In this document: piece after piece, positions 11,348-60,500 of the stretch
Layout of the letters: every line of letters begins with the position of its first letter
Numbering within the stretch: position 1 is the stretch's first letter
Assembly (NCBI GenBank): GCA_028713125.1
Contig: JAQTOU010000002.1
Coordinates: 398,583-462,582, forward strand
From: Elusimicrobiales bacterium
GTDB lineage: Bacteria; Elusimicrobiota; Elusimicrobia; Elusimicrobiales; UBA9959
Direction: 5' to 3'
DNA length: 64,000 bases
Program-made: the position numbers and the translations under genes
Notes under the pieces: model-generated
What the model was told of the DNA's origin: nothing
Databases searched by the model: none
The model's input: the letters and a program-made list of their open reading frames with translations, nothing else

Positions 11348-11464
11348 GGTGTATCTCCCGTGACTTTTATGCCTGAAATAGGACCGTCTCCATCCTTATC
11401 CGTCGTGGCCGGCGCCGGCGCGCCGGCCGCCGCCGGCAGGGCGAGTGACCCTTATCACACTTGA

Positions 11465-11488
11465 CCGCGGTTACAGCCGCGGCTTTTT
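11465..11488 (+). terminator. orphan terminator-like hairpin in the mltA / FecR-like divergent spacer
   Basis: CCGCGG (11465-11470), loop TTACAG, CCGCGG (11477-11482), then CTTTTT; no plus-strand gene upstream. Confidence 0.3.
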
Positions 11489-11538
11489 CATAGGGGAAAA
11501 GCCTCTCCCGCTGTTCCAATTATCCCAAAAAAGCCATG

Positions 11539-11567
11539 TTGACACAAGGCGGATTTTCTAATAAACT
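11539..11567 (+). promoter_or_regulatory. sigma70-like promoter TTGACA-N17-TAAACT ending 6 nt before the ATG at 11574
   Basis: TTGACA 11539-11544, TAAACT 11562-11567, ATG at 11574, no Shine-Dalgarno between. Confidence 0.45.
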
Positions 11568-11573
11568 CTCACT

Positions 11574-13427
11574 ATGAGGACAAATATTCTTTCATTACTG
11601 CTTTTTATAGCGCTGCCGGGGGCAGTTTTGGCCGAGGAAGCCAAAATTCTCTCCATGAGCGGCGAAGTGGAAGTGCGGCCTACACGCGAGGGGATCTGGA
11701 TCCCGGCCAAAGACGGGATGGAGATAGCCGAGGGCGGCGCCGTCCGCACCGGGGCCAAAGGCGGGGCCGTAGTGCTGATGCCGAACAAGACCAAGGTCTG
11801 GTTCAGAAAATCCACCACGCTGGAGATAGAGCAGCGTCAGACCCTGGCTTCGCGCCTGATGCTGGTGTTCGGCAAGGTCAAGATCCGCGTGCCGCATTTG
11901 ATGCGAAGGGAAAAATTCGAGGTACGCACCCCGGTGGCCGTCTGCGCCGTGCGCGGCACGGAATTTACCATGGGCGCGACCGAAGACGGGAAGATGGACC
12001 TGCAGGTCCTCTTCGGCGAGGTCAAGCTTAAATTTACTATCCCGCCCCAGAAAGGCAGCTCGGAATTCAATATCCCGCAGGGCCAGGGCCTTAGCACCGC
12101 CGAAACCGGCAAGGCCGTGACGCCCGTCCTTCTTACCGCGAAGTCGGAGAGGGACGCCCTGGAAAACTGGAACCCGGGCCTGAAGCCCGAAGAGCGGCAG
12201 AAAGAGCTGCAGCAGAAAGACACCGATCGGGCGCAGATCAAGGATTTCGCCCGCGCCACGAACAACGCTGAAGACTCGGTGAAAAGTTTCCTCAACGTGG
12301 TAAAGGAATCCGACCTTGAAGCCGGCCGCACCCTCAGCGACGTCCACGGCAATTTGGTCCGCGTGGACCAGCGCATGGTGCGCCCCGACGGAAGGACTAT
12401 ACAGTTCATGAACCTGGTGAAGAGGCCGACCTACGCCAACTATTCCCAGGCGCCTCATGGCTTCGTTTATAACGGCGGCGCGGTCGCCAACCGCCTGGAC
12501 CTGGCGCAGATGAGCATGGGCTTCAATAAAGACCTGCCGGCCCGCATAGAGGAATGGCCCTCTTTCTTCAACGGCAATACCGTTAACCCGGTCTATGCTT
12601 CCTTCATACTTGCGAACAGGACCAATATCGCTGCCGACGGCATCTTCTTCGTGGCGGAAGGTTACCGCTACGACGCCACCCGTGACGAACTGGTTGATAA
12701 CTTGGCCGTTTTCGCGCCGGGGCTGAGTATCGCCAGCACAAATCCTAATGACAGGCATACTATGATGACCGGCGTCCTCAAGGACGGTGGCGATATTAAT
12801 TCTGGTCTTCTGGCCCAGGATATGTTCAATGCCATCTCCAGGCTTAAAATACGCGATGCTGACCCGCTGCTCCGAAACGGGACTAATAGCACTTCGGCCG
12901 GTAATCTCGAATATTTAAATCCAAAGACCGGTCTTTACATAGCGATGGATAACGCCGGAACCAGCGCAACCAATGTGGACTGGGGGATGCGCCTGACCGA
13001 GACCGTTAACTCCGGCAAGGGTTACAAATATGACGTTAGCGGCGCCAACGCGCCCCTGATGCAGTTCCAGGCCGACCCCTATGCCATCGGAAACGTACAG
13101 GGTCAGGGCGTAATGTGGTACGCCAGGGAAGACTATGTGATAGGGAACGGCGGCGGGATTAAGAGCGCCGACAGCATAACCAATTCCTCCCAGGACCCTT
13201 TCACGCTGCTGAAGGGCCTCGCTGTGCAGAGCATCGTTTATGTGAAACAGTCGAACGCGAACAGCGCGGCGGCGCTTACCAATAGCGCGGCCGCCTACAG
13301 CGATATAAAAGCGACGGATCACATGACGGCTCTGACCAACAGGAACATCGACGTGGTGTTCATTCCCGACCTGATGATAGCCGCGGTGCAGCGCATGCTG
13401 CCGGCGATCACGAATCTTGGCAACTAA
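11574..13427 (+). CDS. secreted FecR-domain protein (paralog 1 of 3)
   Basis: 617 aa; signal peptide MRTNILSLLLFIALPGAVLA; FecR-type core FEVRTPVAVCAVRGTEF. It shares VHGNLVRVDQRMVRP and a C-terminal RNIDVVF with the ORFs at 52989 and 54759. Confidence 0.7.
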   Translation: MRTNILSLLLFIALPGAVLAEEAKILSMSGEVEVRPTREGIWIPAKDGMEIAEGGAVRTGAKGGAVVLMPNKTKVWFRKSTTLEIEQRQTLASRLMLVFGKVKIRVPHLMRREKFEVRTPVAVCAVRGTEFTMGATEDGKMDLQVLFGEVKLKFTIPPQKGSSEFNIPQGQGLSTAETGKAVTPVLLTAKSERDALENWNPGLKPEERQKELQQKDTDRAQIKDFARATNNAEDSVKSFLNVVKESDLEAGRTLSDVHGNLVRVDQRMVRPDGRTIQFMNLVKRPTYANYSQAPHGFVYNGGAVANRLDLAQMSMGFNKDLPARIEEWPSFFNGNTVNPVYASFILANRTNIAADGIFFVAEGYRYDATRDELVDNLAVFAPGLSIASTNPNDRHTMMTGVLKDGGDINSGLLAQDMFNAISRLKIRDADPLLRNGTNSTSAGNLEYLNPKTGLYIAMDNAGTSATNVDWGMRLTETVNSGKGYKYDVSGANAPLMQFQADPYAIGNVQGQGVMWYAREDYVIGNGGGIKSADSITNSSQDPFTLLKGLAVQSIVYVKQSNANSAAALTNSAAAYSDIKATDHMTALTNRNIDVVFIPDLMIAAVQRMLPAITNLGN

Positions 13428-13437
13428 TATGGAACAA

Positions 13438-14184
13438 AAAATGAAAAGGCTGACCTTGATCCTTTTGGCGCTTTTCCTGGTAAAAAGCCCCGCTTTCGCT
13501 TCGGTGGACTGGGAATCCAAAGGGATGCAGATAGCCGGTGAAATTATTGCCAACCCGGCGGGTTTCTTCTACGACTTCCAGCAGGACCTGGAGGGAACCA
13601 CGCCGCTTCCGCCAGGCAAGAGCTTCGGTTTCCAGATGGGACTTTTTCCCACGCTCATCCCGGTGACCTATACCAATATCTCCGGCAAGTACAGGCTGCA
13701 TGCCGAGGGCCGCATAGCCCCGGGCGTGCCGCAGCTGGACCTGATAGGCGGCTACTGGGACATGCTGGCCGCCAAGATGGCGACCAAGGATTCCAAGAGC
13801 ATAGACAGCGCGAAGTTCGGCGGCTACTATATGGGCGCGATCATGAGCACCTCGGTGAGCCCGCGCGTGCGCACTTTCTGGGGCTACAAGCACAGCCAGC
13901 TCGACGCAAAGCTGAAGTTCAAGGCCGGCGAGCAGCCGACCCTGCTTGGCACTACGGTCAATAGTTTCGATACCGGCTTCAAGGACGACTTTTTCATAGC
14001 CGGCATAGAGACGCCCAGGAGCATCGGCAAGCTTTGGAGCATCCAGCTTAATTACGGCCTGAAGACGCAGACCTTCTCGAGCAAGGTTAGCTGGTACGGG
14101 AAGTATTTTGAGCTGGGCCTGAATATTTACCCCGAGGGCGTGCTGGTGGTGCACCCGGTGTGGAATTTCCACCTGAATTTCTAA
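13438..14184 (+). CDS. hypothetical secreted / outer-membrane protein
   Basis: Start at MKRL (13438) preferred over 13417, which overlaps the upstream stop; signal peptide LILLALFLVKSPAFA; Y/G/S/T-rich; C-terminal NFHLNF (terminal Phe typical of OM barrels). Confidence 0.45.
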   Translation, partial: KMKRLTLILLALFLVKSPAFASVDWESKGMQIAGEIIANPAGFFYDFQQDLEGTTPLPPGKSFGFQMGLFPTLIPVTYTNISGKYRLHAEGRIAPGVPQLDLIGGYWDMLAAKMATKDSKSIDSAKFGGYYMGAIMSTSVSPRVRTFWGYKHSQLDAKLKFKAGEQPTLLGTTVNSFDTGFKDDFFIAGIETPRSIGKLWSIQLNYGLKTQTFSSKVSWYGKYFELGLNIYPEGVLVVHPVWNFHLNF

Positions 14185-14196
14185 GGAATAATAACG

Positions 14197-15399
14197 ATGA
14201 AAAAAATAATTTTAGGCGCTTTAATAACGGCGGGCATGGCCGGGAGGCTCTGCGCGGCCGTGGCGGAGGATTCGAAGATCTTCACTCCTTTCTTCGACAT
14301 GACCCTGTCCGAGGCGGCTTTCCTGCCTTCCGAAGGCAATATCTTCAGCGGCGGAAATATGAATACCCAGGTGGGCCTGCTGACCAAGGTAACGCAGAAG
14401 GACCATATCTTCGGCCTTTATAACTTCAACTATACCGGCCAGGGCTTCACGCCGCAGGATTCAAAGCAGTTCACCGACCGGTCAATGTCGCACGGCTTCA
14501 ATATCGAATACCGCCGCTCTATAACCGACCGCATCCGCGTCCGCCCCGGAGTGGCGCTGACCCGGGAATACCGCCGCACGGGGGCTAACGAGGTCTGGAA
14601 GAACGGTCTTTACAATATGAATTCCTCCGGCGCGCAGCTCGCGGCCGACTACACCTTCAGCGAGGAGAAGAACGGCTATGTCACGGTGCAGTACCTTTTC
14701 CGGAACGTGAAGTTCCCTAACTATACCGACCTCCTGAGCGAGTTCCAGAACGCCGGGAACACCGCCGAGACCTCCGGCGGGCTGCAGGACCAGAGCATGA
14801 CCCAGTTCAGCCTGCGCCCGAGCTGGAACCAGTTCTTCGCCGGGCTGACCCTGACCGCTCAGAATTACAAGAACCAGAAAGTGGTGGCCAATACCGGCGT
14901 CTACGGCGCTTCCAAGCAGAAGGACAGCGACACGGCGCTTGATTTCGGCTTCCACCATACGCTTTGGATCTTCGAGCTGTCCCCGATGGTCTCCTATACC
15001 ATGCATACCTCGAACCAGAACTTCATGCTGTACAAATTCCTGGGCGATACCAGCCCGCAGTTCGGGGAGAAATATTACGATTTCAAGGAACTCGCCCTCA
15101 GCGTGCCGCTGGACCTGAACGTCACCAGCAAGTGGGCCGTGGGCGGCGCCCTGAACATGACGCGGCGCGCCTACGACAAGCGCACGGCCCGCGACGCCAA
15201 TAATAATTTCACCTCCTCCAAACAGGTCAATACCATGACCACGCTTACCGGCTCGATCCGCAAGCGCATAAACGAGGTGGCCATGGTGCGCCTGTTCGCC
15301 TCCATCATGGTGGCGAACTCGAATAATAAGTTCGAGAAATACCTGCCCTACAGCTATACCGGCAAAAGCTTCGGCCTTGCCTACCAGCTGTCCTATTAA
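14197..15399 (+). CDS. putative outer-membrane beta-barrel protein, uncharacterised family (paralog 1 of 3)
   Basis: 400 aa; signal peptide; alternating-polarity Y/N/T/S-rich sequence; C-terminal aromatic (..AYQLSY); VKFPNYTDLLSEFQ aligns with VTYPNYSTLLSQSQ in the ORF at 56237. Confidence 0.55.
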   Translation: MKKIILGALITAGMAGRLCAAVAEDSKIFTPFFDMTLSEAAFLPSEGNIFSGGNMNTQVGLLTKVTQKDHIFGLYNFNYTGQGFTPQDSKQFTDRSMSHGFNIEYRRSITDRIRVRPGVALTREYRRTGANEVWKNGLYNMNSSGAQLAADYTFSEEKNGYVTVQYLFRNVKFPNYTDLLSEFQNAGNTAETSGGLQDQSMTQFSLRPSWNQFFAGLTLTAQNYKNQKVVANTGVYGASKQKDSDTALDFGFHHTLWIFELSPMVSYTMHTSNQNFMLYKFLGDTSPQFGEKYYDFKELALSVPLDLNVTSKWAVGGALNMTRRAYDKRTARDANNNFTSSKQVNTMTTLTGSIRKRINEVAMVRLFASIMVANSNNKFEKYLPYSYTGKSFGLAYQLSY

Positions 15400-15422
15400 A
15401 GAGCGAAGGCCATGCGAAGCGG

Positions 15423-15453
15423 AGGCCCGGGTTCCCCGGGCCTTTGTTTTTTT
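15423..15453 (+). terminator. intrinsic terminator
   Basis: 9-bp stem AGGCCCGGG / CCCGGGCCT with TTC loop, followed by TTGTTTTTTT. Confidence 0.8.
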
Positions 15454-15535
15454 ATACCGTTGAAACAAAATTGAAATCGGGGTATGTTTTAATACTTTAT
15501 ATGGCGTATTGGCGTTCTAACCAGGAATAAAAGAT

Positions 15536-16978
15536 ATGCGGGCCGGATCTTTACGCGTACAATTTATCGGTTTTATCCTGTGCTTAACTGCGCCGGCGGC
15601 GGCTTTTGCCTCGGGGCCGGGAACTTCCGCCGCTAATTTCATGAAGATCCCGGTGGGGGCGCGCGAGACTTCGCTTGGGGGGGCTTTTACGGCGGTAGCC
15701 GATAATGCGGACGCCGTATTTTATAATCCGGCCGGCCTCGGCCTGCTCGCGGTTCCGGAGATCTCCTACGCTTATAATAACTACCTGTCCGGGGTTTCAC
15801 AGCAGTGGGTGGCGGCGGCCTATCCCGCCGCATTCGGGACTTTGGGCCTGGGCGTGAATTACCTCGGCGTGAAGGCTTTCGAATCCTACGACAATTCCGA
15901 CAGGAGGACCGGGTCGGTCTCCGCCTATGACCTGGCCGCCTATCTGGGCTGGGGCGACGGCCTGGAGACAAACAATAAATTCCTGCCGTCCGTCCGGTAC
16001 GGAGCGACGGTGAAATTTATTTCAGAGAAGCTGGACAGCAGCGAGGCTTCGGGCTACGGGCTGGACGCCGGCCTGCTGCTCCTGCCGGCCGTAAAAAACC
16101 TCAGGTTCGGGCTCGGGGCGGAAAACCTGGCCGCGAGCCGCCTCTCTTTCATCAGCGGCGGGGCCAGGCCCGCGATGAAAGTGAAAACCGGGGTTTCTTA
16201 CCGGCTGGGGTCCGCCCTGAGGCCCGTCGCGGCGCTGGTTTCCTTGGACCTTAATTTCCCGCAGGACGGGCCCCGCTATCTTTCGGCCGGGATAGAGACC
16301 ACTCTCTACGGCGCATTGGCGCTGAGGGCCGGCTACAGTTCCTTCGGAGATATTTCTAACGGCGTGAGTTTCGGCCTCGGTTTGGGCCTGCCTTCGCGCG
16401 GCGGCAGGGAGCTCCGGCTCGATTACTCCTATGGCGCCACCTATGACCTGGGGAGCGTTCATAAATTCGGCCTCGCCTACAAATTCGCCGCTTTCTCCGC
16501 CGCGCCTCCGGCAGGGCCGCCCCCGGCGGCGGCGCCCGTGCCGGCGCGCCCTGCCGCGCAGCCTGCGCCGGAGCCGGTAATGAAAGCCGACTCCGAATTC
16601 GAACGGCAGGTCGCCTGGCTTTACAGCGACAGCCCCGACGATTCCCGCGCCGCGGCCGAATACCTGGCCGGCCTGGACAGCCCGTTGGTGCTCGAGCATT
16701 TTATAGCCCTGCTGTCCTCCGGTAAAGCCTGGTGGAAGCAGGCCGCCGTTCGCGGCCTGGCCCTGATGAAGGACGGCAGCTCGCTGAAGGTCCTGGAGGG
16801 CGCTTTGACCCATGAGGACCAGGAAGTGAGGCGGCAGGCGGCGCTGGCTATCGGCAGCCGCGGGGAGGCCGGGTCGGCCGCCGCGCTGCAGAACGCGCTG
16901 AAAGGGGAAGAGTCCGACAGCGTGAAAAGCGCGATCATAGAGGCCCTGGGCAAACTGCCCGTACCCGCGGAGGAATGA
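15536..16978 (+). CDS. PorV/PorQ-like (UPF0164-like) barrel fused to a C-terminal HEAT-repeat domain
   Basis: 480 aa; signal peptide; GPGTSAANFMKIPVGARETSLGGAFTAVADNADAVFYNPAGLG is the PorV/PorQ-family N-terminal signature; Pro/Ala linker APPAGPPPAAAPVPARPAAQPAPEP; then HEAT/PBS-lyase-like repeats (EDQEVRRQAALAIGSRG, DSVKSAIIEALGKL). Confidence 0.65.
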   Translation: MRAGSLRVQFIGFILCLTAPAAAFASGPGTSAANFMKIPVGARETSLGGAFTAVADNADAVFYNPAGLGLLAVPEISYAYNNYLSGVSQQWVAAAYPAAFGTLGLGVNYLGVKAFESYDNSDRRTGSVSAYDLAAYLGWGDGLETNNKFLPSVRYGATVKFISEKLDSSEASGYGLDAGLLLLPAVKNLRFGLGAENLAASRLSFISGGARPAMKVKTGVSYRLGSALRPVAALVSLDLNFPQDGPRYLSAGIETTLYGALALRAGYSSFGDISNGVSFGLGLGLPSRGGRELRLDYSYGATYDLGSVHKFGLAYKFAAFSAAPPAGPPPAAAPVPARPAAQPAPEPVMKADSEFERQVAWLYSDSPDDSRAAAEYLAGLDSPLVLEHFIALLSSGKAWWKQAAVRGLALMKDGSSLKVLEGALTHEDQEVRRQAALAIGSRGEAGSAAALQNALKGEESDSVKSAIIEALGKLPVPAEE

Positions 16979-17017
16979 ATTTAGCGGCCTTCAAGAACGG
17001 CACGGAGATGTTTTCTT

Positions 17018-18373
17018 ATGAAAAAACCTATCACTTGTTTAAAGCTGGCCCTTATAGCCTTAAGTCTTTATTTTTCAGCCCTCGCCCCTCTTAACGCGGG
17101 GGCCCCGCTGAAGATAAATTTCCAGGGCCGCCTTGAGGAAAGCGGGCAGCCGGCGGAGGGAACGAAGACTTTTATCTTCAAGATCTATACGGCCATGTCC
17201 GGCGGGAGCCTGGTGTGGACCAGCCAGGCGCAGAACGTGGCCCTGACCAACGGGGTCTTCAGCGTCGTCCTGGCGACCGGGTCGCCGGTAAACTTGTCCA
17301 CGGCCACTTTCTCGGGGGCGAGGTACGTAGAAATTATCGTGAACGGTTATCCGCTGTCGCCCCGCCAGGAGATGGTCTCGGCGCCGTACGCCCTGGTGGC
17401 GCAGGCGCTGTCTTCGGACGCCAGGATCTCCCTCGCGAACCTGGAGAAAGACCCGTCCTCGGCTTCGACCATAAATACCGCGACTAACGCCGTGGACTGG
17501 ACCCAGCTTAAGAACGTGCCCGCCGCGTTCGCGGACGGGACCGACGACGTGGTCGCGGCGGTGCTTTCGACCGCGGCTATAACTTCCGGAAAATTCGGGG
17601 ACGAGCGGGTCGCTATCTCCACAGGCGCTTTTTACGGGGGCTTCAATGCCCCGGACCAGCTGGTGCAGCTGGACGGCGCAGGCAAGCTTCCAGCCTCCCT
17701 GCTCTCCGGGCCGCTGCCGGCCCTGGACGGCGCGGCGCTTACCGGCGTTACCGCCTCTTCGATAGCCGCGGTAAATGTCAGTTCGGGGGCGCTGGGAAAC
17801 TCGGTGATCGCCTCCTCCATAGCGGTGGGAGGGGTCTATTCCGCCTCATTGCAGGCGGGGTCGGTGACGGACCTGAAGGTTCTGCTCACTACCGCGGCCA
17901 TAAGCTCGGGCAAATTCGGGGACGAGCGCGTGTCTATTTCTACCGGCGCTTTCTATGGAGGCTTCAACGCGGCCGGCCAGCTGGTCAGGCTGGACGCCTC
18001 CGGCAGGCTGCCGGCCGGGACTTCTATTGCGGGGGCTATAGCGCTGCCGGTCAAGCGGATAACGGCCGCCGACTTCCCTTACACGGTTACGGAAAACGAC
18101 AGTACGGTTCTGATCGACGCGAGCGCGGCCGGCGCCGGCGCCAATGTGGTCATCGAGCTGCCGGACGCGGCCGGAATTGCCGGAAGGATCTACACTTTCA
18201 AGCGCCTGGACAATCTCGCGGGTTTACAGGTTGTAAATCTTATCCCGGCGCTCGGGGGCAATTCCATAGACGGCAGTTTTCTCTTCGACCTGTATCTTAA
18301 CGGTCTGCAGGGCGAAGCTATAACTTTGCAGAGCGACGGGTCTAATTGGATGATCCTGTCCTGGTATAAGTAG
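17018..18373 (+). CDS. secreted tail-fibre-like protein with internal 42-aa duplication
   Basis: 451 aa; signal peptide; N-terminal FQGRLEESGQP..FKIY....LVWTS...V.LTNGVFSVVL and DWTQLKNVPAAFADGTDD resemble the N-terminal modules of tail-fibre-domain proteins; C-terminal small beta domain ..ITLQSDGSNWMILSWYK. Confidence 0.55.
   Translation: MKKPITCLKLALIALSLYFSALAPLNAGAPLKINFQGRLEESGQPAEGTKTFIFKIYTAMSGGSLVWTSQAQNVALTNGVFSVVLATGSPVNLSTATFSGARYVEIIVNGYPLSPRQEMVSAPYALVAQALSSDARISLANLEKDPSSASTINTATNAVDWTQLKNVPAAFADGTDDVVAAVLSTAAITSGKFGDERVAISTGAFYGGFNAPDQLVQLDGAGKLPASLLSGPLPALDGAALTGVTASSIAAVNVSSGALGNSVIASSIAVGGVYSASLQAGSVTDLKVLLTTAAISSGKFGDERVSISTGAFYGGFNAAGQLVRLDASGRLPAGTSIAGAIALPVKRITAADFPYTVTENDSTVLIDASAAGAGANVVIELPDAAGIAGRIYTFKRLDNLAGLQVVNLIPALGGNSIDGSFLFDLYLNGLQGEAITLQSDGSNWMILSWYK
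17570..18016 (+). repeat. intragenic duplication: 42-codon repeat at 17570-17695 and 17891-18016 (period 321 nt)
   Basis: TAAITSGKFGDERVAISTGAFYGGFNAPDQLVQLDGAGKLPA vs TAAISSGKFGDERVSISTGAFYGGFNAAGQLVRLDASGRLPA, 35/42 identical. Confidence 0.9.
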
Positions 18374-18401
18374 CGTCCGCCGCAATTATCGTAAGGCCTG
18401 A

Positions 18402-18430
18402 CCCCGGTCAAGACACCCGGGGCCTTTTAT
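18402..18430 (+). terminator. intrinsic terminator-like hairpin
   Basis: CCCCGG (18402-18407), 9-nt loop, CCGGGG (18417-18422), then CCTTTTATT. Confidence 0.5.
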
Positions 18431-48700: not shown

Positions 48701-50715
48701 CCAAATACGCCGAGAGCTACGAAGCGTTCTCAGCGCTATTAGGCGGATCTCCGACCGGCTACGGCTTCGAGATCCGCGCGCTTGCCCCGTCGACCTGTTA
48801 TACCGCAGTACTGACTACCCCCAACTACCCGCCCTACCAGGAAAAGGTCTGTATGGGAGTTAACGGTTCGACAAAAACAGTGACCACCATAAACATGGAT
48901 ACCGCTGTGGGCGCGGGCGCCACGCTTTCGGGCGTGGTGACCACCACCGGAACTCCGGTGAAGCTGGCCAATGCCGAGATACAGATCTCCGGCGAAGGCG
49001 TAGATACCCGGTCGGTAGTTACCAGCTCGGTCGGCTACTACAAGTTCGAGGGTCTGCCCGAGGGCGCGGTAAGGATAAAGGTTTCGCTGAGCGGCTACTC
49101 CGCGAGCGAAGCCGAGGAAAGCCTTGTCGGCCATAATACCTATACGCAGAACTTCGCGCTGTTCCCTGCCGACGGCTCAATAACCGGCACGGTCTACTCG
49201 CAGAAGCTGCCTTTCTCCAAGGTACAGCCGGGAGCCATCATAGTGGCCTATGACGATACTTATAACGTCAATAACCCGACCAAGCCGCTGCCCCTGATGA
49301 AGACCATGACGGGCTCGGACGGAACGTACAAACTGGAAAACCTGATCGCCGGCGACGTCTATAAAGTGTTCCTTAAAGTCCCCGGCAAGTATACGCTGAA
49401 CCAGACGACTACGGCCGCGGCCGGTATTGTCGCCGGGGTTGACTTCACCATGCTGGCGAAGCCCCTGGACCTGGAGATATTCGCCAAAAAGGTCGGCGAT
49501 GATGCCACGGGCTCTTATGAGTTCACGGTACTCAACCCGCAGGACTTCAAGCAGGGCGAGGCAAGGTGGGCGCCCCAGACCGGTTTCTCGTTCGGCGCGG
49601 CTACCGTGCTCAACCTGGAGAAGCTCTCCAGCGGCGAACTGCGCGGCTCGATACCGCTTAGCTCGCTCGCCTCTAACATAACTTACATCCTGCAGGGCAA
49701 TGCCACGTCTTATTCCAATAAGACCGTTTCCAGGCAGATCCTGTTCGGTAAAGCCTACAAAGGCAGCGCCGAGCAGCATATCGACGACACTATCCTGGGT
49801 GACGACTCCGACGACGGTTTCGGCCGCAAGAGCAATGAGGCCCCCATGGATAAGAGCGGTGACGACGCCTCGGCCCTGATGTTCCCGGCCGGCGCTGTGC
49901 AGGTGATCTCTTCCGGGGCGATCCCGACCTGCTCTTTCAAGGGCGAGGGCAAGGATTCCCCCGCGGTGGCCGATAAAGTAGCGGCGCTGGGCGCGGACGC
50001 CTTCGCCGGCAACCTTTATACCGTGGACATGACCAGCGCGGTCATCAATACCGGCAAGGAAATAGAGCTGACGCTGGCTTATGACAAGAGCACGTCCAAC
50101 CTTAACGACCTGTCAGTGTCTCAGTATAATGACACCACCGCCAAGTGGGAACAGGTCCCCGGCGTGGCTACTATTAACCCGGTGAAAGGCACGGTGAAAG
50201 TAAAGCTCAAGAAGCTTGCCTCGGTGCTTTCCAGGCCTAACGGCTATGTGAGCGTCTCCGATGGCCGTCAGTACGTGGTGAGGCCGCAGTCGGGCGGGAG
50301 CAGCAGCTCCGCCGGCACGTTCGCGGTGGTCAGGCCCTCCATCGCCGGGAACGCTTTCGCCGGCAAAAAGATAAAGGTGTTCAACTACCCGAACCCCTTC
50401 AACCTGAAGGACAAGGCCATCTCCAATAATAACGGCGCGGCCCTGCCCGGCACGGTCAACGGCACGGTGATACACGTAGAGGTTCCCGCCGGTAACGGCG
50501 GCGCGGGCCATGTGAAGATCTACACCCTGTCCGGCGAGCTTGTGAAGGATATTAAAGTGGACTTCACGGACGGCGCCTACAACTACGTGGGCTGGGACGG
50601 CCACAATGCCGGCGGCCAGGAAGTCGCCAACGGCGTGTATTACGGCGTCGTGGAGATGTCCGGCAAGTCCGTCAAACGCGAAGACGCCACCTTCAAGATG
50701 GCCGTGATAAAGTAG
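45706..50715 (+). CDS. giant secreted surface protein with CarboxypepD_reg-like beta-sandwich repeats and a T9SS-type (FlgD-Ig-like) C-terminal domain
   Basis: 1669 aa; signal peptide MSSFTKIILAAVLFAASSGLVSA; several modules of the type G.V....G.P...A.I......T.SDG.Y.L..L..G.Y.V (e.g. GVVTTTGTPVKLANAEIQISGEGVDTRSVVTSSVGYYKFEGLPEGAVRIKVSLSGY); S/T/N/G-rich. Confidence 0.8.
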   Translation: MSSFTKIILAAVLFAASSGLVSAAPPTLKVHIQKSDLSPVQYVTVAAIEFGMNGPSTYTQVGLTDIGGDVTFTLSSGTYGRSYNLYYSSHGFSPSISDQFNNPEYDPNRYVWAMGSQAYFSTFTITQLAPSEVGGRLIQQFIGASTGTVLFGGVYNMVSQMQGGSGIVLTNSVAGSTDTLVVDNVPFADANTYNIGLYDPKKNKGIGRNVMTALSAGTPVIAYLAASNAALNFDQSVPPARVETKTQQGGEPTAGASVEGVLMSTNSTPIGYMGLEVKGCGGSYNWQTWAHADQNGRFQLYGLTPGVTYYVNAMGGCTWNNDTHESKCYAPFSSPNYKLNDMCTGVDNSLATPNDIVYSVANSSEVIYKIITLDEMPRSIGQIRVYVRSTSGVPMPNSNVNINPDGSPWPNNPTSCQSTNFFNNYSSSAGYSNLNVNTSATGYALLDGLPSGNYTLNVNTPFSNNSGGPSAPFNGNGDDFTAFGMNGGGPGMDWTQAHCSGTGKNDYRITIDTDPVTNGGQTFHIYNSSGSHVQFAAGGAIVTDGSGVNMSSITYIVEAGAINMSGLVRGTLRFPGITDLSNNPVTISVFPQCMNMGPGSSCPPGNLYSEVRSGASSYDYSINVSSGYSYYMNVTASGWGRVNRGGGNNNINLASTGTAVVDMDFVPAGSISGTVYKPGGTEIFTPSSNQWVWIDANSNNGWTGTQLQKDGTFAMNDVLPGVNRIRINVSGGGPGVTTFNYALPNPAPSVMVTANSSTTLNLNLVKANYVGVDVFISSLPARSMMKTGRETVLGFKVIPLPSGTVLKGETIAKMLTGGDEEEMRMNYSSATLPGDETGRCGSPWPGGFCAMSFPSPAVYDFYLMRAGDMGKGEGASADSPYPHFTLISSSKNVVIDDAHAKGLVRPGQGVGLSSGVVVNLTPSTNQHDRGNATLAGRVTAANFFRKTDYEATGGDFENFVKYLPVLSLYDANGVFAAAGVVLPPPDYIATHDLNNDFQTKYAESYEAFSALLGGSPTGYGFEIRALAPSTCYTAVLTTPNYPPYQEKVCMGVNGSTKTVTTINMDTAVGAGATLSGVVTTTGTPVKLANAEIQISGEGVDTRSVVTSSVGYYKFEGLPEGAVRIKVSLSGYSASEAEESLVGHNTYTQNFALFPADGSITGTVYSQKLPFSKVQPGAIIVAYDDTYNVNNPTKPLPLMKTMTGSDGTYKLENLIAGDVYKVFLKVPGKYTLNQTTTAAAGIVAGVDFTMLAKPLDLEIFAKKVGDDATGSYEFTVLNPQDFKQGEARWAPQTGFSFGAATVLNLEKLSSGELRGSIPLSSLASNITYILQGNATSYSNKTVSRQILFGKAYKGSAEQHIDDTILGDDSDDGFGRKSNEAPMDKSGDDASALMFPAGAVQVISSGAIPTCSFKGEGKDSPAVADKVAALGADAFAGNLYTVDMTSAVINTGKEIELTLAYDKSTSNLNDLSVSQYNDTTAKWEQVPGVATINPVKGTVKVKLKKLASVLSRPNGYVSVSDGRQYVVRPQSGGSSSSAGTFAVVRPSIAGNAFAGKKIKVFNYPNPFNLKDKAISNNNGAALPGTVNGTVIHVEVPAGNGGAGHVKIYTLSGELVKDIKVDFTDGAYNYVGWDGHNAGGQEVANGVYYGVVEMSGKSVKREDATFKMAVIK
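50368..50712 (+). other. C-terminal sorting-type domain (T9SS type-A CTD / FlgD Ig-like pattern)
   Basis: KIKVFNYPNPFN....HVKIYTLSGELVKDIKV......YNYVGWDGHNAGGQEVANGVYYGVVEMSGKS...FKMAVIK matches the YPNPF ... IYd..G..V ... WDG.n..G..v.sGVY pattern of Por-secretion C-terminal domains. Confidence 0.6.
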
Positions 50716-50741
50716 GACCAGATTAAGACTGAGGAGAGACT

Positions 50742-51650
50742 ATGAAATATAAAATATGGCTTTCAGCGGCTTTAATGCTGGCAAATACGGCGGCTTACGC
50801 CTCCGGCCCCGGGACCACCGGCGCTGCGTTCCTCAAAGTGGGAGTGGGGGCCAGGGAACTGGCCCTCGGGTCCGCGGCGAGCGTGCTTACCGAGGGCGCG
50901 AACGCGGCTAACTGGAACCCCGGCAAACTCGCCGAGGTGAAGGGCAAGAACCTGAGCGCGAGCTACAATATGCTCTTCATCGACGAGTCTCAGGGCGCGC
51001 TCGCCTACGCTACCCCGCTCAGCGGCGGGAGCGCGGTGGTCGGCGCGGGTATCAACTACCTGACCGTCTCGAATATCGAAAAGCGGGCCAGCGATACCAA
51101 TACCCCTGATTCGAAGTTCAGCAATAATAACATGGCCTTCACTCTGTCCTATGCCCGGCCCGAAGTAAAGCCCGGCCTGGCCCTGGGCGCGAACCTGAAG
51201 TACATCTCGCAGAAACTGGACACGGCGGACGATAAAGCCATAGCGCTGGACCTCGGCTCCACCTACAAGGTTAACGACACCTGGACCGCCGCTTTCGTCA
51301 TGCAGAACCTTGGCAGCAGCATAGGTCCGGATAAACTGCCGCTTACCTTCAAGGGCGGCGCGGCCAGGAGTTTCCTGGACGGGAAGCTGGCCGCCGGGGC
51401 GGACCTGGACTGGCTGGCCCAGGACGAGCGGTTCTACCTGTCTTTGGGCGGGGAGTACCTGCTGAACAAGAATTTCGCCTTCAGGGCGGGCTACCAGTTC
51501 GGCCACAGCGCGGATAAGCTGGGCAGCGGCCTGGTGGGGCTCGGCGCAGGCATCGGCCTCAAGTTCGACCGCTTCGCGCTCGATTACGCCTATGTGCCTT
51601 TCGGCGACCTGGGCGATACGCACAGGATGACGCTTGGATTTAACTTTTAG
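50742..51650 (+). CDS. PorV/PorQ-like (UPF0164-like) outer-membrane barrel
   Basis: 302 aa; signal peptide; GPGTTGAAFLKVGVGARELALGSAAS......NWNPGKLA N-terminal signature; C-terminal ..HRMTLGFNF; starts 27 nt after the CTD-bearing gene. Confidence 0.7.
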   Translation: MKYKIWLSAALMLANTAAYASGPGTTGAAFLKVGVGARELALGSAASVLTEGANAANWNPGKLAEVKGKNLSASYNMLFIDESQGALAYATPLSGGSAVVGAGINYLTVSNIEKRASDTNTPDSKFSNNNMAFTLSYARPEVKPGLALGANLKYISQKLDTADDKAIALDLGSTYKVNDTWTAAFVMQNLGSSIGPDKLPLTFKGGAARSFLDGKLAAGADLDWLAQDERFYLSLGGEYLLNKNFAFRAGYQFGHSADKLGSGLVGLGAGIGLKFDRFALDYAYVPFGDLGDTHRMTLGFNF

Positions 51651-51761
51651 TCCGTAGTTTGGCGGCAGCAGGCAGGTTTCCCGCGCTTTCCCTTAAAGGG
51701 GCCAGTGCGGGATTCTGCCGTTCAGGGTCTGGATTCTAACTCAATAAATATAGGACAAATC

Positions 51762-52985
51762 GTGAAAAAAATATTACTTTCAGCGCTTTTGCTCGCGCCG
51801 GCCTGCGCCGGGGCCAAAGGTTTCGAACTCCAGGGCAAGCTCGATCTTTTCGGGGGCCAGTACTTTTTTCAGAACCAAAACGGAGCTTTTAACGGCTACG
51901 GCGTGCTGGACGCCCAACTGGCCAAAAGCCAATCGTCCAGTTCCGGTTATTTCATCAGCCTCCGTTCGATGTACACCGGCTTCAAGCAGGTGAACGAACT
52001 GGCCGGCGGCGGAACGCTTTTCCAGCAGAGCCTGGACAATTCCCTCGGCTTCAAATGGATAAGGCGCTATGAAGGCGGCTATTCCTTCAAGCCGCGCGTC
52101 GGGATAAAGAGCCAGCTTTTCAGGGAGACCAAGGACGAGAAATGGGGCAAAGGCCTTTACGACCTTACCCGCTACGAGGCCGGCCTGACGCTGGAGCGCA
52201 AGACGCGCCTCGGCCTGTCCACGCCGTGGATCTACCAGTTCTCCTGGGACGTCTATTATAACCGCTATACCCGCTTCAAGACCCTGGCCAGCCAGTACGG
52301 GCAGGAACTCGCCGCGCCCAATCCCGGCAGCCGTACCCTCGACACCGTCACCAACCAGTTCTCTTACGACAGCGAGTTCGACCTGCCGAACTTCGTCCGC
52401 CTGGACCTCTTCGCAGCCGTATCCCTGGTCGGCTACCAGGACCAGAAAGTCATAAACGCGGACGGCAACTACCTCTCCTCCATGCGCTCGGATTCCTACC
52501 AGGCGCTTAATGTAGGGCTCAGCAAGCGCTATAACGATATAGACTTCCTCGGAGGGGTGCGCCCTGTGATGAGCGTCCGCCTCGGCCTGGCCAATAATTT
52601 CTCCAACCAGAGCCACCTGGATACGGACCCGGCCCACCTCAGGTTCACGCGCGCTTATTACGATTACTGGGAGGAGCGGCTTTCTCCCGGCGCCCAGTTT
52701 ACTTTTATAGATTCCGGCCTCATCGCCCGCCTGAATTATGAATTCGCCATCCGGCGCTATACCGGCAGGCTGGCCCAGAAATCAGACGGCGCTTACAGCC
52801 GCGACAAGCTCGGCCAGTATTCGGGGAGCTTCACCGCCGAAGCCGCCTACCCGCTGTTCCGCCACATTGATATCAAGCTTCAGGGCACCTGGGCGAACTC
52901 GAGCTCCAACAACCACTACGAGCAGGTCTACCGGTACAATTATTACAGTTCGATGTATTTCGCGGGTCTGGAATGGAGGTTTTAA
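51762..52985 (+). CDS. putative outer-membrane beta-barrel protein, uncharacterised family (paralog 2 of 3)
   Basis: GTG start at 51762 (VKKILLSALLLAPACAGA signal peptide) preferred over the ATG at 51705; ETKDEKWGKGLYDLTRYEAG aligns with ETKDEKWGDGLFDYTTLSFG in the ORF at 56237; ends ..YFAGLEWRF. Confidence 0.55.
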   Translation: MKKILLSALLLAPACAGAKGFELQGKLDLFGGQYFFQNQNGAFNGYGVLDAQLAKSQSSSSGYFISLRSMYTGFKQVNELAGGGTLFQQSLDNSLGFKWIRRYEGGYSFKPRVGIKSQLFRETKDEKWGKGLYDLTRYEAGLTLERKTRLGLSTPWIYQFSWDVYYNRYTRFKTLASQYGQELAAPNPGSRTLDTVTNQFSYDSEFDLPNFVRLDLFAAVSLVGYQDQKVINADGNYLSSMRSDSYQALNVGLSKRYNDIDFLGGVRPVMSVRLGLANNFSNQSHLDTDPAHLRFTRAYYDYWEERLSPGAQFTFIDSGLIARLNYEFAIRRYTGRLAQKSDGAYSRDKLGQYSGSFTAEAAYPLFRHIDIKLQGTWANSSSNNHYEQVYRYNYYSSMYFAGLEWRF

Positions 52986-56236: not shown

Positions 56237-57472
56237 ATGGTAAATAAACATAATCCCTTTATAGTGCCGTCCCTGATCCTTCTTTCACTTTTAGGCCCTG
56301 CCGCGCCGCTCTACCCGGCGTCGAAGATCCTTACCGTCGCCGACGTCTCCCTCCTGGGCGGGAAATATTTCCTCGATTCCCAGGCCGCTTCTTTCCAGGG
56401 CCGGGTGGACGCTTTTGTGTCCCCGACTATCAAGCTGTCGGAGAACAGCGATCTTATCCCGGTTTACTCCGGCAACTATTCCGGTACCCAGGACATACAG
56501 GAGCTCGCCGGCGGCGGCGTGCTTACCCGGAAGCGGATGACCAATACTTTTTCCCTTAAATATATCTACACAGACGAGTTCAACAAGTACAAGCCGCGCC
56601 TCTCCTACTCGAAGGCGGGCATAAAGGAAACCAAGGACGAGAAGTGGGGGGACGGCCTTTTCGACTATACCACCCTGTCCTTCGGTTTCGAGGCCGAGCA
56701 GGAGCGCCCGCGCGGGACCTTTACCGAATCCTACGACTATTACAAGGTGACCTACCCCAATTACAGCACACTGCTCTCGCAGTCGCAGTCCGTCTTCAAC
56801 GACACCACTACCTTTAACCAGCTTTCCACCAATGCCGGCGCGAACCCGCTGGACAATACCAGCCACCGCCTGGGCTTCGTTTACTCCTGGTTCCCGGAGC
56901 CGCTCAATATGAAGGCCGGCTACGATTTCACCTACCGCACCTACGGCGACCAGGCCGTGGCGGCCAGGCCCGTCACGGGGCAATCTCCTTTCAAGAGCGA
57001 CAAGCGCGCCGATATCATGCAGAACTTCAGCCTCAGGGCCAGCCGCGCCCTTAAGCCGCTTTTCCTCAGTGCCGGGGCGCGCCTGGGCTGGCTCAGCTCC
57101 AACCAAGGCTCGTACGATTCCACCCGCAGCAAGTATATGGAAGATTATTACAGCTATGTGGACCTTTCTTTAAGCCCGGCGATGACGCTCGCCCTCCCGA
57201 GCGGCGCGCAGTTCAATTTCGGCGTGGACTGGCGGCAGGTCTGGTACCAGGGCCGCCCGGCTCAGGCCGATACCGGCACCTACGGAAAAGCGGAGATCAA
57301 GCAGACCTGCTGGCTTACCTCCCTTTCCGTCCGCTACCCGCTGGCCAACAGGTTCTTCGCGCGCGCGGCCTATAACTACCAGGTTTCGAGCTCGAACATG
57401 CATTACGAGGAGAGCTACCGGTACAATTACCGGGCCAGCACCTATCTGATGGGGATAGAGTGGGAGTTCTGA
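56237..57472 (+). CDS. putative outer-membrane beta-barrel protein, uncharacterised family (paralog 3 of 3)
   Basis: 411 aa; signal peptide; paralogous to the ORFs at 51762 and 14197; ends ..YLMGIEWEF. Confidence 0.55.
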   Translation: MVNKHNPFIVPSLILLSLLGPAAPLYPASKILTVADVSLLGGKYFLDSQAASFQGRVDAFVSPTIKLSENSDLIPVYSGNYSGTQDIQELAGGGVLTRKRMTNTFSLKYIYTDEFNKYKPRLSYSKAGIKETKDEKWGDGLFDYTTLSFGFEAEQERPRGTFTESYDYYKVTYPNYSTLLSQSQSVFNDTTTFNQLSTNAGANPLDNTSHRLGFVYSWFPEPLNMKAGYDFTYRTYGDQAVAARPVTGQSPFKSDKRADIMQNFSLRASRALKPLFLSAGARLGWLSSNQGSYDSTRSKYMEDYYSYVDLSLSPAMTLALPSGAQFNFGVDWRQVWYQGRPAQADTGTYGKAEIKQTCWLTSLSVRYPLANRFFARAAYNYQVSSSNMHYEESYRYNYRASTYLMGIEWEF

Positions 57473-57531: not shown

Positions 57532-60500
57532 ATGCGAAAGATAAAAAACATTTTCATCAACCTGCTGGGGGCGGCGCTTTTCGCCGCCGGCTCCGCCGGG
57601 CTGGCCCAGGCCCAAAGCCCCTTTACCGGGAATTTCGCCGCCGGCGGCGTAACCTATGACGGCGGCCCCTACCAGATCGGGATGATGCAGCGCGGCGCCG
57701 GGATCGCCGTGGATACTATAACGATAAACGGTCCCTATACTTACACCGTAGCGGTTTCTTCGAACGGCGGCTCGGCCGACTACCTTATAGCGAAGTACGA
57801 TCCCGCCGGTGTGGTGCTTTCTTCCGTTTCTTTCTCCAAGGGCCCGTCGAATATGGAGCAGCCGGCCATAGCTGTCGGACCTGACGGCTCCGTCTATGTC
57901 GCGGCTGACGTGGCCGAGCAGCCCATGACGTATTCTTATTCTTTTGACAGCCTCCTGCTTAAATTCAACCCCAGCCTGGGTTTCGTGTCCTCCACCACTT
58001 TCAGGGTCGCCGCTGGCGGCGCAAACGACGGCTTTTATGCCGTGGCCACCGACGCAGCAGGAAATGTTTACGCGACTGGAACCTCCAATAACGGGACAGG
58101 CGGCAGCGGGAACGGCGAGATAGTCACTTTGAAATACGATCCCGCCCTGGTCTTCATCTCGTCCGCCGTCTTTAATATCGAAGGGGCCGGCCTCCATGAT
58201 ATAGCCCGCGGCATCGCCGTAAATTCCGCGAACGTTTATGTGGCCGGGATGTCCTATACCGCGCCCGGGATCAATCCTGTCTGCACCATACTCAGGTACA
58301 CCCAGGCGATGACTTTCGTTTCCTCCGCCGCTTTTGCCGGCGGCTTCGGGGCCTGTAATGCCATAACGGCGGTGCAGAGCGCCGGGGCCGTCTTTGTGGC
58401 CGGTTATCTGGACGCCGGTTCTTTCAACACGGCTTCCATAGTGGCGAGATATACCAACACCCTGGTGTTCGAGTCCTCGGCCGGCTATAACGGCGGAGGC
58501 TATAACATAGCCAACGGCCTGGCGGCCGACGGGGCGGGCGGCGTTTACGTGACCGGCAGGTACGACGGCGTCACCGAGAACTTCGTCCTGTTCGCCTACG
58601 ACAATTACCTGAACTTTATCTCTTCCACCGGCTATGACAGCGGCTACTCCGATATAGGTTATGGCCTGGCCGCGGACGCCGCCCGGAACGTGTATGTCGC
58701 CGGTTATTCCAATAACGGCATTAACGACGTCGTGAAAACTATCAGGTACACCCAGGCGGACCTCGCACCCACGTTTCCCGCCGCGGCGACGCAGCGCGTC
58801 TGGATCGGCGGCGGCGCCGACCTGGCCAGCGAACCCGGTAACTGGCTGAACGGTCTGCCCCAGCCCGGCGACGGCATACTTTATGACGCGGCCTATATCC
58901 CGAATGCCAGCCTGACATGGGACCTCGGGGCCTCCGTCCCGCTTTCTTCCGTCACTGTCAGCGGCGCCCTTCCGAGCGGCACGCTGATAGTCGCTTCGCC
59001 GCTGCTTGTCACCGGCGATCTCGTTTTGAACTCGCCTAACGCTGCCGTGCTCTTCGATTCGGGGAGCGGGATCTCCAGCGTCAGCGGTGAGGTTAAGGTA
59101 GACGCCGGAGTTTTCTCCGTCACCGCCTCCACGTTCATCTCCGTCACGACCTTTACCGTAAACGGCGGGACCTTCGACCTGGCCTCGGCCTATTTCATGG
59201 GCAACAGGCTGACCGTCAACAGCGGGGCGGCCCTCTCTCTCCGCGTCGCCGACCCGCTCTTTAATACTGAGCCGCCGGTCCTTACCAGCACCAGCCCTAC
59301 CTCAGCGCTCAAACTGACCGTGGACGGAACGGTCGACGTTTCCAGCTGCGTCATCGGGAGGACCTGGCATAAGGGCATCGATTTCGGGCCCGCCGTTTCC
59401 TTCACTAATTTCTCCAACGTTCTTTTCCAGGGGCCCCTGCTCCCCGGAACCACGGCTATTTATTTCGAGGGCGGCGCGCCTTACGTCACTTTCAGCAGCG
59501 TAAGTTTCGCCGACGCCAATATCTATTTCAACGTGAACGCCAGCCTGCTGAGCCCCGGCGCGAGCATAACCATGCTGTACTTCTCCGGCCCCAGGGCCGG
59601 CGCCTCCTTCGAGAACGATCCCTTCAGCTACGTGCAGTGGGGGCCGCCGGTAGTATATATTTCCACCGCCGACGTTTCGCCGGCCGCCTATTTAGCCGGC
59701 CAGGAAGCCGCGGCGCTAAGGATAACGCCTTATACTCTTTCGGGTTCGGCAGCTTTCACCGGGATGCAGATAGCCGTAAATCCAGCCGGCGCCTACACCG
59801 ATATAGCCTCGGTCGCCGTCTATAAAGACACCGACCTGGACGGAATCTGGAACGGCCAGGTGGACCAACTCCTGGCCGGCGGCCCGGTCACCTCCGCCAC
59901 TTTCAATTTCGACCTCAGCGGCGGGCAGCCCCCGGCCGCGCCCGGGCGCAAGCCCGCGGGGTTCCCCGGCTCTCCGGGCGGGATCGTGGATACGAACCCT
60001 ATCGGTCTTTTCATAACCCTGACGCCCGCTGTCGCGGCCGTGGGCAATAATGTCAATGTTTCTGTGGTCTCTTCCAACTCCTTTACCACAGGCGGCGACA
60101 TGGCGCAGCAGGCTATCTACCCCGTGGTTTCGGCTCCCAAACTGGTCAACTACCTGGCCGGCGTGACGACCCTCGCCGCCCCTGCGGGCGCCAACCTCAA
60201 TACGCTCAGCCTGGCCTGGACCTATCCGCAGGACATCGCCGCCGGGCATTACATAGTCCGCTATAGCACTAACCCGGCTGACCTCGCCGACCCCGATTCG
60301 ACCGATAACCAGACGGTGACTGATATCAGCGGCGTGACGGCCGGCTCCGTGGACAGCCTCGATCTATACGAGCTTCCCGTGGTGACCGACGGGCTGCGCG
60401 TATTGCCGCGCTACGCCGCGGTCTGGCTCTATAACGGGACGAGCACGTCCTCGGTTTCAAATTTGGTGCGGAACCTTTATTTCCCCGTGTCTTCCGTGAG

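Follow-up and report, generated by a model that had tools for sequence, protein, structure and literature searches.

PorQ and PorV of P. gingivalis are outer-membrane barrels that anchor PorZ and PorU, respectively, on the cell surface, and PorZ is no longer displayed there when its C-terminal domain (CTD) is truncated (PMC5562754). Mosaic adhesive trimer (MAT) fibres carry a ~130-residue beta-rich domain after the signal peptide and swappable tips with or without an S74 domain; the surface receptor of this N-terminal domain (N-domain) was left unidentified in the Bdellovibrio work (PMC10769870). Here we describe positions 11574-18373 of a 64,000-nucleotide stretch of Elusimicrobiales DNA (the window), a block of five co-directional plus-strand open reading frames (ORFs), A1-A5, in which a barrel related to PorV/PorQ (A4) and a MAT-like fibre (A5) lie 3' of three conserved genes (A1-A2-A3, the triad). 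The block is probably a composite of two units with different histories, one inserted beside the other. It belongs to no described system, and is best filed as built from known kinds of component standing beside an uncharacterised conserved operon, the window copy being an incomplete module.

Like PorQ-PorZ and PorV-PorU, A4 and the small adaptor encoded beside its relatives combine a FadL-like barrel of the PorV/PorQ family with a partner that keeps a type A CTD. The differences are that the phylum is Elusimicrobiota, that the barrel has a Pro/Ala linker and a HEAT (or TPR) C-terminus, that the adaptor is only ~180 amino acids long with no enzymatic or beta-propeller body, and that the genes adjoin and travel with a fibre gene, the window copy being without the partner. 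In the literature searched, no type IX secretion system (T9SS) components were found tied to Elusimicrobia; neither a sortase nor an A-LPS pathway nor SprA/PorKLMN came to light, though no search was aimed at them. The A5 family resembles the Bdellovibrio MATs (Caulton et al. 2024) in its signal peptide, conserved beta-rich N-domain, variable stalk and swappable tips. However, the N-domain spans ~105 residues rather than ~130, A5 has 451 residues against ~1000 and lacks S74, the host is not a known predator, and the fibre gene has a fixed PorV-like/CTD neighbourhood that is not reported for Bdellovibrio. Gene pairs of Bacteroidota in which a type B CTD protein accompanies a PorP/SprF-like barrel (e.g., SprB-SprF), reportedly described by Gorasia et al. 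in 2022, share the logic of a cognate barrel gene beside the CTD surface protein that it anchors; in the present case the barrel is of the PorV/PorQ rather than the PorP/SprF kind, the CTD is type A and the fibre is a third component.

The elements of the block are the following.

11519..11530, plus strand: upstream element ATTATCCCAAAA, 8-9 nt ahead of the -35 hexamer, conserved in relatives

11539..11567, plus strand: promoter TTGACA-N17-TAAACT, sigma-70-type, predicted to drive the triad operon

11574-13427, plus strand: A1, 617 amino acids; in the AlphaFold2 (AF2) model a FecR beta-sandwich at 23-175 behind the signal peptide, then a long helix at 205-245 and a C-terminal domain of 370 residues

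13417-14184, plus strand: A2 ORF, conserved start at 13441; 247 amino acids from ATG 13441

14197-15399, plus strand: A3, 400 amino acids

15423..15453, plus strand: intrinsic terminator, closing the triad operon

15536-16978, plus strand: A4, 480 amino acids; barrel at ~30-317, Pro/Ala-rich linker at ~320-350, C-terminal HEAT domain at 387-472

16979..17017, plus strand: A4-A5 junction, 39 nt; the CTD gene of relatives is absent

17018-18373, plus strand: A5, 451 amino acids; signal peptide, N-domain at residues 28-133 (nt 17099-17416), repeat stalk, C-terminal knob at ~340-451

18398..18428, plus strand: second, weaker hairpin with a T run 3' of A5, -12.6 kcal/mol

The evidence for two units comes from their distribution. 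When one genome per species was searched with an alignment of A3, 62 Elusimicrobia loci were returned, onto which all eight neighbouring proteins were mapped. The triad is present and collinear in 55 of the 55 loci with enough flank, with A3 at 39-98% identity, and lies nearly always between the divergent mltA-namZ genes and smc, the latter within 450 nt of A3 in 34 loci. No more than 10 loci, each with an A3 at least 78% identical, have PorV-HEAT and fibre genes after the triad, and these genes are missing from relatives whose A3 is 98%, 94% and 88% identical. At seven other loci the same site between triad and smc is occupied by unrelated inserts that change species by species, among them a gene for a response regulator, others for a 444-residue protein and a secreted protein rich in Cys, and an insert of 3.3 kb. 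Non-PorV inserts at this hotspot include:

L014, 7317-7988

L028, 10117-10509

L032, 7142-10439

L048, 8881-10215

L051, 11594-12898

Scans of 11-18.7 kb for Rfam families and tRNAs returned nothing, so no tRNA gene marks the hotspot in the window. Judged by gene order and conservation, the first unit (11519-15453) is a self-contained three-gene operon, kept wherever testable in Elusimicrobia, and the second (15536-18428) is rather likely to be an accessory module that was inserted at the hotspot between the triad terminator and smc. Adjacency here marks an insertion hotspot and not a single machine, which corrects a tempting over-reading. The window arrangement is identical in an independent assembly (Logan contig L001), and every homologue of A1, A3 and A4 that bears a name comes from Elusimicrobia (174 of 174 for A1). 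The most distant triads (L060-L063) have different flanks (PanD, Nrf-like and biotin genes), which give no functional hint. The idea that the triad is linked to the divergent mltA-namZ genes (muropeptide uptake) is a weak one, since distant members keep the triad but not this synteny.

Much of what the initial annotation had read from the letters of the block holds. The five co-directional genes each encode an N-terminus of the basic-hydrophobic-AxA type of signal peptide (judged by eye), and the FecR, barrel and PorV/PorQ-HEAT assignments are supported by Pfam, NCBIfam and AF2. The A2 product indeed has a putative signal peptide and ends in Phe, with a length that is more likely 247 residues than the 248 given, as the ATG at 13441 is conserved in orthologues. 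The promoter of the block, TTGACA(11539)-17-TAAACT(11567), is the top site of our promoter scan (10 of 12 positions) and is conserved across relatives. The strong terminator at 15423-15453, said to split the block into two transcription units, is a hairpin of -27 kcal/mol (GGAGGCCCGGG-TTC-CCCGGGCCTTT followed by T7); in 44 of 63 loci a similar GGCCCGGG-loop-CCCGGGCC hairpin with a T run stands 3' of A3, regardless of whether the PorV module is there.

Upstream of A1, the pattern ATTATCCCAAAA-N7-9-TTGACACAAG-N6-TTTCTAnTA[AG]ACT-N6-8-ATG is kept near base for base in ~38 species, in whose loci ATTATCCCAAAA is invariant or nearly so and the A1 proteins are 50-80% identical. Exact copies of ATTATCCCAAAA number one in the window, and the 29-nt promoter pattern is likewise single there (0 expected by chance). 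On the opposite strand ATTATCCCAAAA reads TGGGATAAT, an extended -10-like site pointing to mltA. The -10 hexamer ends 6 nt from the A1 ATG in the window and 6-8 nt from it in relatives, and a Shine-Dalgarno sequence is not present before A1, which suggests that the triad mRNA is leaderless. GGAG- or AGGA-like ribosome-binding sites precede A2-A5; the distant triads that lack this promoter carry GGAGG-like sites upstream of A1 instead. The hairpin at 18398-18428 resembles the A3 terminator of relatives that lack the insert (loop CAGACA), and reads ...CAAGACACCCGGGGCCTTTT in the window versus ...CAGACACCCGGGCCTTTTT in L018, L021 and L052. Related GGCC(C)GGG hairpins with T runs, at 15423-15453 and 18398-18428, bracket the A4-A5 pair. 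This bracketing, with the likeness in the CAGACA loop, is what would be expected had the module been inserted between A3 and the terminator that A3 first had. With its own promoter and terminator, the strictly conserved three-gene operon, apparently of the outer membrane, is a good target for studies of the envelope in this little-known phylum.

In the second unit, A4 scores 100.4 bits against the NCBIfam PorV/PorQ family model NF033709 (cut-off 90; residues 30-317, profile positions 1-326 of 326), 12.4 bits against the PorV equivalog NF033710 (cut-off 250) and 83.9 bits against the PorQ equivalog NF033711 (cut-off 220). By these scores A4 is a family member nearer to PorQ, and neither a PorV nor a PorQ orthologue. 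It is identical to an Elusimicrobiales protein named "PorV/PorQ family protein" at NCBI, and its residues 387-472 match Pfam HEAT_2 with 55 bits. An even-stranded barrel has its two termini on the periplasmic side, so the HEAT extension, or the TPR extension that replaces it in some Elusimicrobia PorV-like barrels (L102 2875-4509; P0338, P0341), would be periplasmic. A helical-repeat periplasmic extension seems to be a recurring trait of PorV-like barrels in the phylum.

The proposed partner of A4-type barrels is missing from the window and was therefore not visible to the initial annotation. In relatives, a gene for a CTD protein of ~175-196 (~180) residues lies between the PorV-HEAT and fibre genes (nine genome loci). 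Its product matches TIGR04183, the T9SS type A sorting domain, with 31-32 bits (cut-off 23), and its best matches are the C-termini of PorZ (E 3e-13) and PorU. A metagenome scan with the fibre N-domain gave 29 loci, and the 24 metagenome contigs together with L067-L069 make 27 loci with an N-domain at least 50% identical. The CTD gene is directly 5' of the fibre gene in 26 of these 27 closely related loci, the exception being a solitary second fibre gene whose contig also carries a full module 15 kb away. The order PorV(-HEAT), CTD mini-protein, fibre is found wherever the contig reaches upstream, both at the site between triad and smc and elsewhere.

The trio also occurs in at least five contexts with no triad homologue in the ~6-9 kb of flank seen (L067, L068, L087, L088, L093), and in permuted order in L100 (CTD mini-protein, a PorV/PorQ barrel of 166 bits, two fibres) and L101 (PorV/PorQ barrel, fibre, CTD mini-protein). 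L067, L068, L100 and L101 are also without a Pfam FecR gene; L087, L088 and L093 were checked by tblastn only. This co-occurrence, kept despite permuted order, is good evidence for a functional unit. Looser cases are L102, where a type B CTD protein is followed by a PorV-TPR fusion, then a kinase and then a 2332-residue fibre with PTL_trimer and C1q domains, and L103, with a CTD protein (920 residues) followed by a PorV-like protein (302 residues) and no fibre. The L103 pair lies beside a transposase and a type I CRISPR-Cas locus, and the L068 module 3' of a glycosyltransferase. The PorV-HEAT, CTD and fibre genes of L067 (2060-6500) lie beside integrase, Prim-Pol and TrwC-like genes, a context which hints that the module is able to move on an integrative element.

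The fibre itself was rightly recognised as a variable, fibre-like passenger: its N-domain of ~105 residues is kept (48-65% identical among relatives) while the remainder aligns poorly, and fibre lengths run from 300 to 2332 residues. The stalk of A5 contains two 134-nt repeats (17562-17695 and 17883-18016). Against Bdello_MAT_N, A5 gives a weak match of 27 bits (cut-off 60, E 3e-6), and the same model matches 5 of 5 close A5 homologues and 21 of 50 sampled distant members (best E 7e-15). These matches indicate that A5 and its relatives belong to the same superfamily as the MATs, outside the Bdellovibrio subfamily, so that A5 is best taken as a distant MAT-like fibre; "tail-fibre-like", as it had been called, is a fair description, and MAT-like a better one.

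A search of 1.84 billion cluster representatives (50% identity clusters) returned 25,292 clusters with this N-domain at E<=1e-3 and 1,786 at E<=1e-10, nearly always directly after the signal peptide and in proteins of 106-2467 residues. Among 50 sampled members the tips include six Peptidase_S74 domains, two C1q domains and two pectate-lyase beta-helices; A5 has no Peptidase_S74 domain. No Pfam family matched the N-domain in A5 and nine other members scanned. One member is annotated in Candidatus Paceibacterota, a lineage not known to have an outer membrane, so the N-domain may not be restricted to diderms. A5 has no match to TIGR04183, Por_Secre_tail or CHU_C and, having no CTD, is not T9SS cargo.

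For the complete module we propose the following arrangement, whose contacts and cellular locations we infer from the above. On the pattern of PorQ-PorZ and PorV-PorU, the PorV/PorQ barrel, with its periplasmic HEAT (or TPR) extension, would hold the ~180-residue type A CTD protein, hardly more than a bare sorting domain, at the cell surface; the CTD protein, the barrel or both would bind the conserved N-domain of the MAT-like mosaic fibre, whose variable tip would point outward as an adhesin, and the HEAT/TPR extension would contact a partner in the periplasm. CTD proteins adjoin PorV-like genes also at L103 and at a second locus of the window (genes B1-B2, below), in support of this docking. 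The trio puts parts of the type IX attachment complex outside Bacteroidota and is a concrete candidate for what holds MAT-type fibres on the cell surface, a question left open by the Bdellovibrio work (PMC10769870).

In the window, alignment of the A4-A5 junction with relatives reveals a clean absence of ~560 nt. No CTD mini-protein is encoded elsewhere in the window, where the only CTD-like sequence is the end of B1 (50503-50712). With the adaptor gene deleted in this genome, the fibre may be docked directly, docked via an adaptor encoded elsewhere, or orphaned. That the A4-A5 pair is a decaying remnant after adaptor loss, with ORFs not yet degraded, is a reading we regard as doubtful but to be taken seriously, because the window and the identical contig L001 are the sole case without the CTD gene among ~35 modules. 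Neither ORF, however, is truncated, and each retains its signal peptide, its conserved domains and a plausible ribosome-binding site, which argues weakly against decay; the same arrangement appears in the independent assembly, another part of the 729-kb contig may encode the adaptor, and fibre genes that stand alone are known (L091).

In the triad beside the accessory module, two products and one domain of 370 residues lack any relative whose function is known. A1 matches Pfam FecR (PF04773) over residues 57-151 with 50.3 bits (cut-off 24). Its AF2 model has a pLDDT (predicted local distance difference test) of 80, rising to ~90 in the C-terminal domain. In Foldseek searches of the PDB only the FecR part found matches, to PupR (6ovk) and BDI_1681 (4m0h) at E 1e-6, with a small match to the "cell surface anchoring domain" 5ix9 (E 0.02); the 370-residue domain gave no relative. 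Leptospira has FecR-domain lipoproteins, LipL45 and Lsa33, of which LipL45 is secreted and not membrane-spanning. A1 and its window paralogues B4 and B5 are like LipL45 in being predicted to be secreted and not membrane-spanning, and unlike it in having no lipobox. Useful literature linking LipL45 with FecR, or Elusimicrobia with PorV, was not found in the literature searched.

A2 and A3 matched no Pfam or NCBIfam family, and family profile searches of A1, A2 and A3 against PDB sequences gave nothing relevant. The A2 C-terminus reads ...HPVWNFHLNF, and the protein is 35-98% identical across relatives. No relative of A2 was found in Pfam, the PDB or profile-profile comparison, and in hhalign comparisons with the A3 and A1 families the A2 family aligned over the signal peptide alone. 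With a signal peptide, a terminal Phe and an aromatic content of 15%, similar to confirmed barrels, A2 is a secreted orphan and a candidate for a small outer-membrane barrel. A beta-amphipathicity score could not tell barrels from soluble proteins and was dropped.

For A3, 39-98% identical in the 62 species loci, the AF2 model (45 sequences) is a closed all-beta barrel of roughly 16-18 strands (pLDDT 82.8, predicted TM-score 0.78), and the C-terminus reads ...AYQLSY. Signal peptide, closed barrel and C-terminal aromatic residue are the generic features of an outer-membrane beta-barrel, and on the model A3 qualifies as one. Foldseek found 388 PDB barrels at E<=1e-3, with TM-scores of 0.35-0.49 and no specific family. 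Assignment of A3 to the porin, FadL or exopolysaccharide-export families was rejected, since the matches are generic ones (V. cholerae OmpT, FadL, BcsC, AlgE, OprP).

A2 and A3 are at least as conserved as SMC and MltA in the same loci, a level that outer-membrane proteins would seldom reach and that suggests constraint and a housekeeping role. FecR domains are known to dock on outer-membrane barrels. We suggest, with low confidence, that A1 would dock on its cognate barrel A3, together with A2, in a lineage-specific housekeeping complex of the outer membrane that could be a gated channel or a trans-envelope sensor. The suggestion draws on the docking habit of FecR domains and on the one-to-one co-duplication of FecR-like and barrel genes.

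This co-duplication is seen in a second locus (locus B) at 45.7-64 kb of the window, the family content of which the block had been said to mirror. The likeness extends to the FecR-like, barrel and PorV families, and not to A2 and A5, for which BLASTP found no counterpart there. The BLASTP E-values are 2e-19 (A1-B4), 4e-18 (A1-B5), 7e-13 (A3-B6), 4e-7 (A3-B3) and 3e-26 (A4-B2), so that the proposed homology of A3 with the barrels of locus B is borne out as an ancient one. The A3-like paralogues are:

51705-52985: B3, A3-like barrel paralogue

56237-57472: B6, A3-like barrel paralogue

The window holds three FecR-like and three A3-like paralogues in all, with the FecR beta-sandwich common to A1, B4 and B5, and in locus B they form one barrel-FecR and one FecR-barrel pair. 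The B paralogues (50.7-57.5 kb) share 22-32% identity with their A counterparts in a different gene order, and are mutually closer (1e-40 for the FecR-like proteins, 7e-36 for the barrels) than to the A copy, so that similarities within both families follow ((B,B),A). This pattern points to old paralogy with co-duplicated FecR-like/barrel pairs and not to a recent duplication of the whole block. B2 scores 156.6 bits against the PorV/PorQ family model. B1 has 1669 residues, of which the last ~70 are T9SS-CTD-like and 41-45% identical to the CTD of the mini-protein; B2 starts 26 nt 3' of B1 (50503-51650), the same CTD-then-PorV pairing as in L103.

Several points weigh against the readings given so far. 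The case for an A1-A3 interaction consists of co-duplication and adjacency, and A2 as a barrel is an unverified candidate. In sequence, profile and structure searches A2, A3 and the C-terminal domain of A1 are without a characterised relative. The leaderless start is one that we infer from promoter geometry. The docking model cannot apply unchanged in this genome because the window module has no adaptor. A5 itself carries no CTD and matches Bdello_MAT_N below the cut-off of that model. Finally, PorV modules adjoin FecR-like and barrel genes at two loci in this window. Despite this last point, we do not favour a functional link between the triad and the PorV module, because the two units are distributed independently.

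The strongest form of such a link would make the triad and the FecR-like/barrel paralogues a general outer-membrane translocon or assembly factor, with PorV modules as its clients. The universal presence of the triad in testable loci, the position of the module 3' of the triad in many genomes, the two PorV neighbourhoods in the window and the lack of any T9SS described for the phylum in the literature searched would all fit. We nevertheless consider it unlikely: a single insertion within a subclade (A3 at least 74% identical, except L090 at 65%) accounts for the adjacency in the block, the site between triad and smc takes unrelated genes too (response regulator, 444-residue protein, Cys-rich protein), neither a FecR nor a barrel gene neighbours PorV in six or more contexts, the A3 fold is generic and the operon has no energy-coupling component. 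It is distinctly unlikely that Elusimicrobia possess a T9SS-like sorting layer in which PorV/PorQ-like barrels stand beside type A CTD clients without the Bacteroidota translocon, and the triad and its paralogues serve as the export or assembly machine. As a corollary of that reading, a PorQ/PorZ-like pair of barrel and CTD protein would be the surface receptor class sought for the N-domains of MAT-type fibres.

The initial annotation had taken all five genes for one cassette, in which the FecR-like protein, A2, A3 and PorV-HEAT form a secretion or display machine, the fibre is its passenger and locus B is a larger copy. It was right about the families, the two transcription units and the variable fibre, and consistent with it are the co-directional signal-peptide genes and the recurrence of three of the families beside large surface proteins in locus B. 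The single cassette itself does not survive. The genes are independently distributed in relatives (55 of 55 loci for the triad, 10 for PorV-HEAT and fibre), an outcome that the annotation itself had named as a refutation, and of the 51 species loci where a decision can be made at least 41 have the triad without PorV or fibre; PorV-CTD-fibre trios occur without the triad in several contexts, PorV-like and CTD genes occur alone in L103, and a conserved terminator divides the units. We rate a single cassette as very unlikely.

With two independent units retained, A1 could still be thought a FecR-type anti-sigma regulator of cell-surface signalling with A3 as its transducer, given its FecR domain and a fold like the periplasmic domains of PupR and BDI_1681. 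This is extremely improbable, because A1 has a cleavable signal peptide (FecR starting at residue ~23) and no cytoplasmic anti-sigma domain or transmembrane helix, and no extracytoplasmic function (ECF) sigma factor or TonB-dependent receptor is nearby, the neighbours in all relatives being MltA, NamZ, A2, A3 and SMC. A3 has no plug or signalling domain. The difference from FecR/PupR extends to B4 and B5, which likewise have no anti-sigma domain and no ECF sigma or TonB-dependent partner; A1-type proteins instead have the extra C-terminal domain and a one-to-one pairing with an orphan barrel family. That A5 is a prophage tail fibre and the A4-A5 pair phage debris is hardly credible: repeats, fibre-like composition, the integrase, Prim-Pol and TrwC genes beside one module (L067) and a weak match of the C-terminal 95 residues to Ralstonia phages speak for it, against which stand the Sec signal peptide of A5, the lack of PHROGs matches for A2, A4 and A5, the absence of phage genes from the window neighbourhood and the invariable linkage of the fibre gene to a PorV-like barrel and a CTD protein. 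The Ralstonia match (tblastn, 35% identity, E 5e-3) covers part of the knob (18080-18358, residues 355-447) and falls on a hypothetical protein directly 3' of the major head protein gene in the podophages RSK1, Firinga and Hennie; L070 3001-3258 is listed with the A5 knob region for this match.

Two minor features lie outside the block. In the intergenic region between mltA and A1, upstream of the A1 promoter, a GC-rich plus-strand hairpin followed by CTTTTT (11464-11482) has no plus-strand gene ahead of it, and on the minus strand it is overlapped by an Rfam match to Collinsella-1 whose 20 bits fall short of the gathering score of 35. Directly 3' of B6, a signal-peptide ORF of more than 2150 codons runs off the end of the window (57532-64000). 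With its SBBP/LipL53-like beta-propeller repeats, and a delta-60 repeat match that is sub-threshold (28 bits, cut-off 76.5), it is predicted to encode another giant surface protein.

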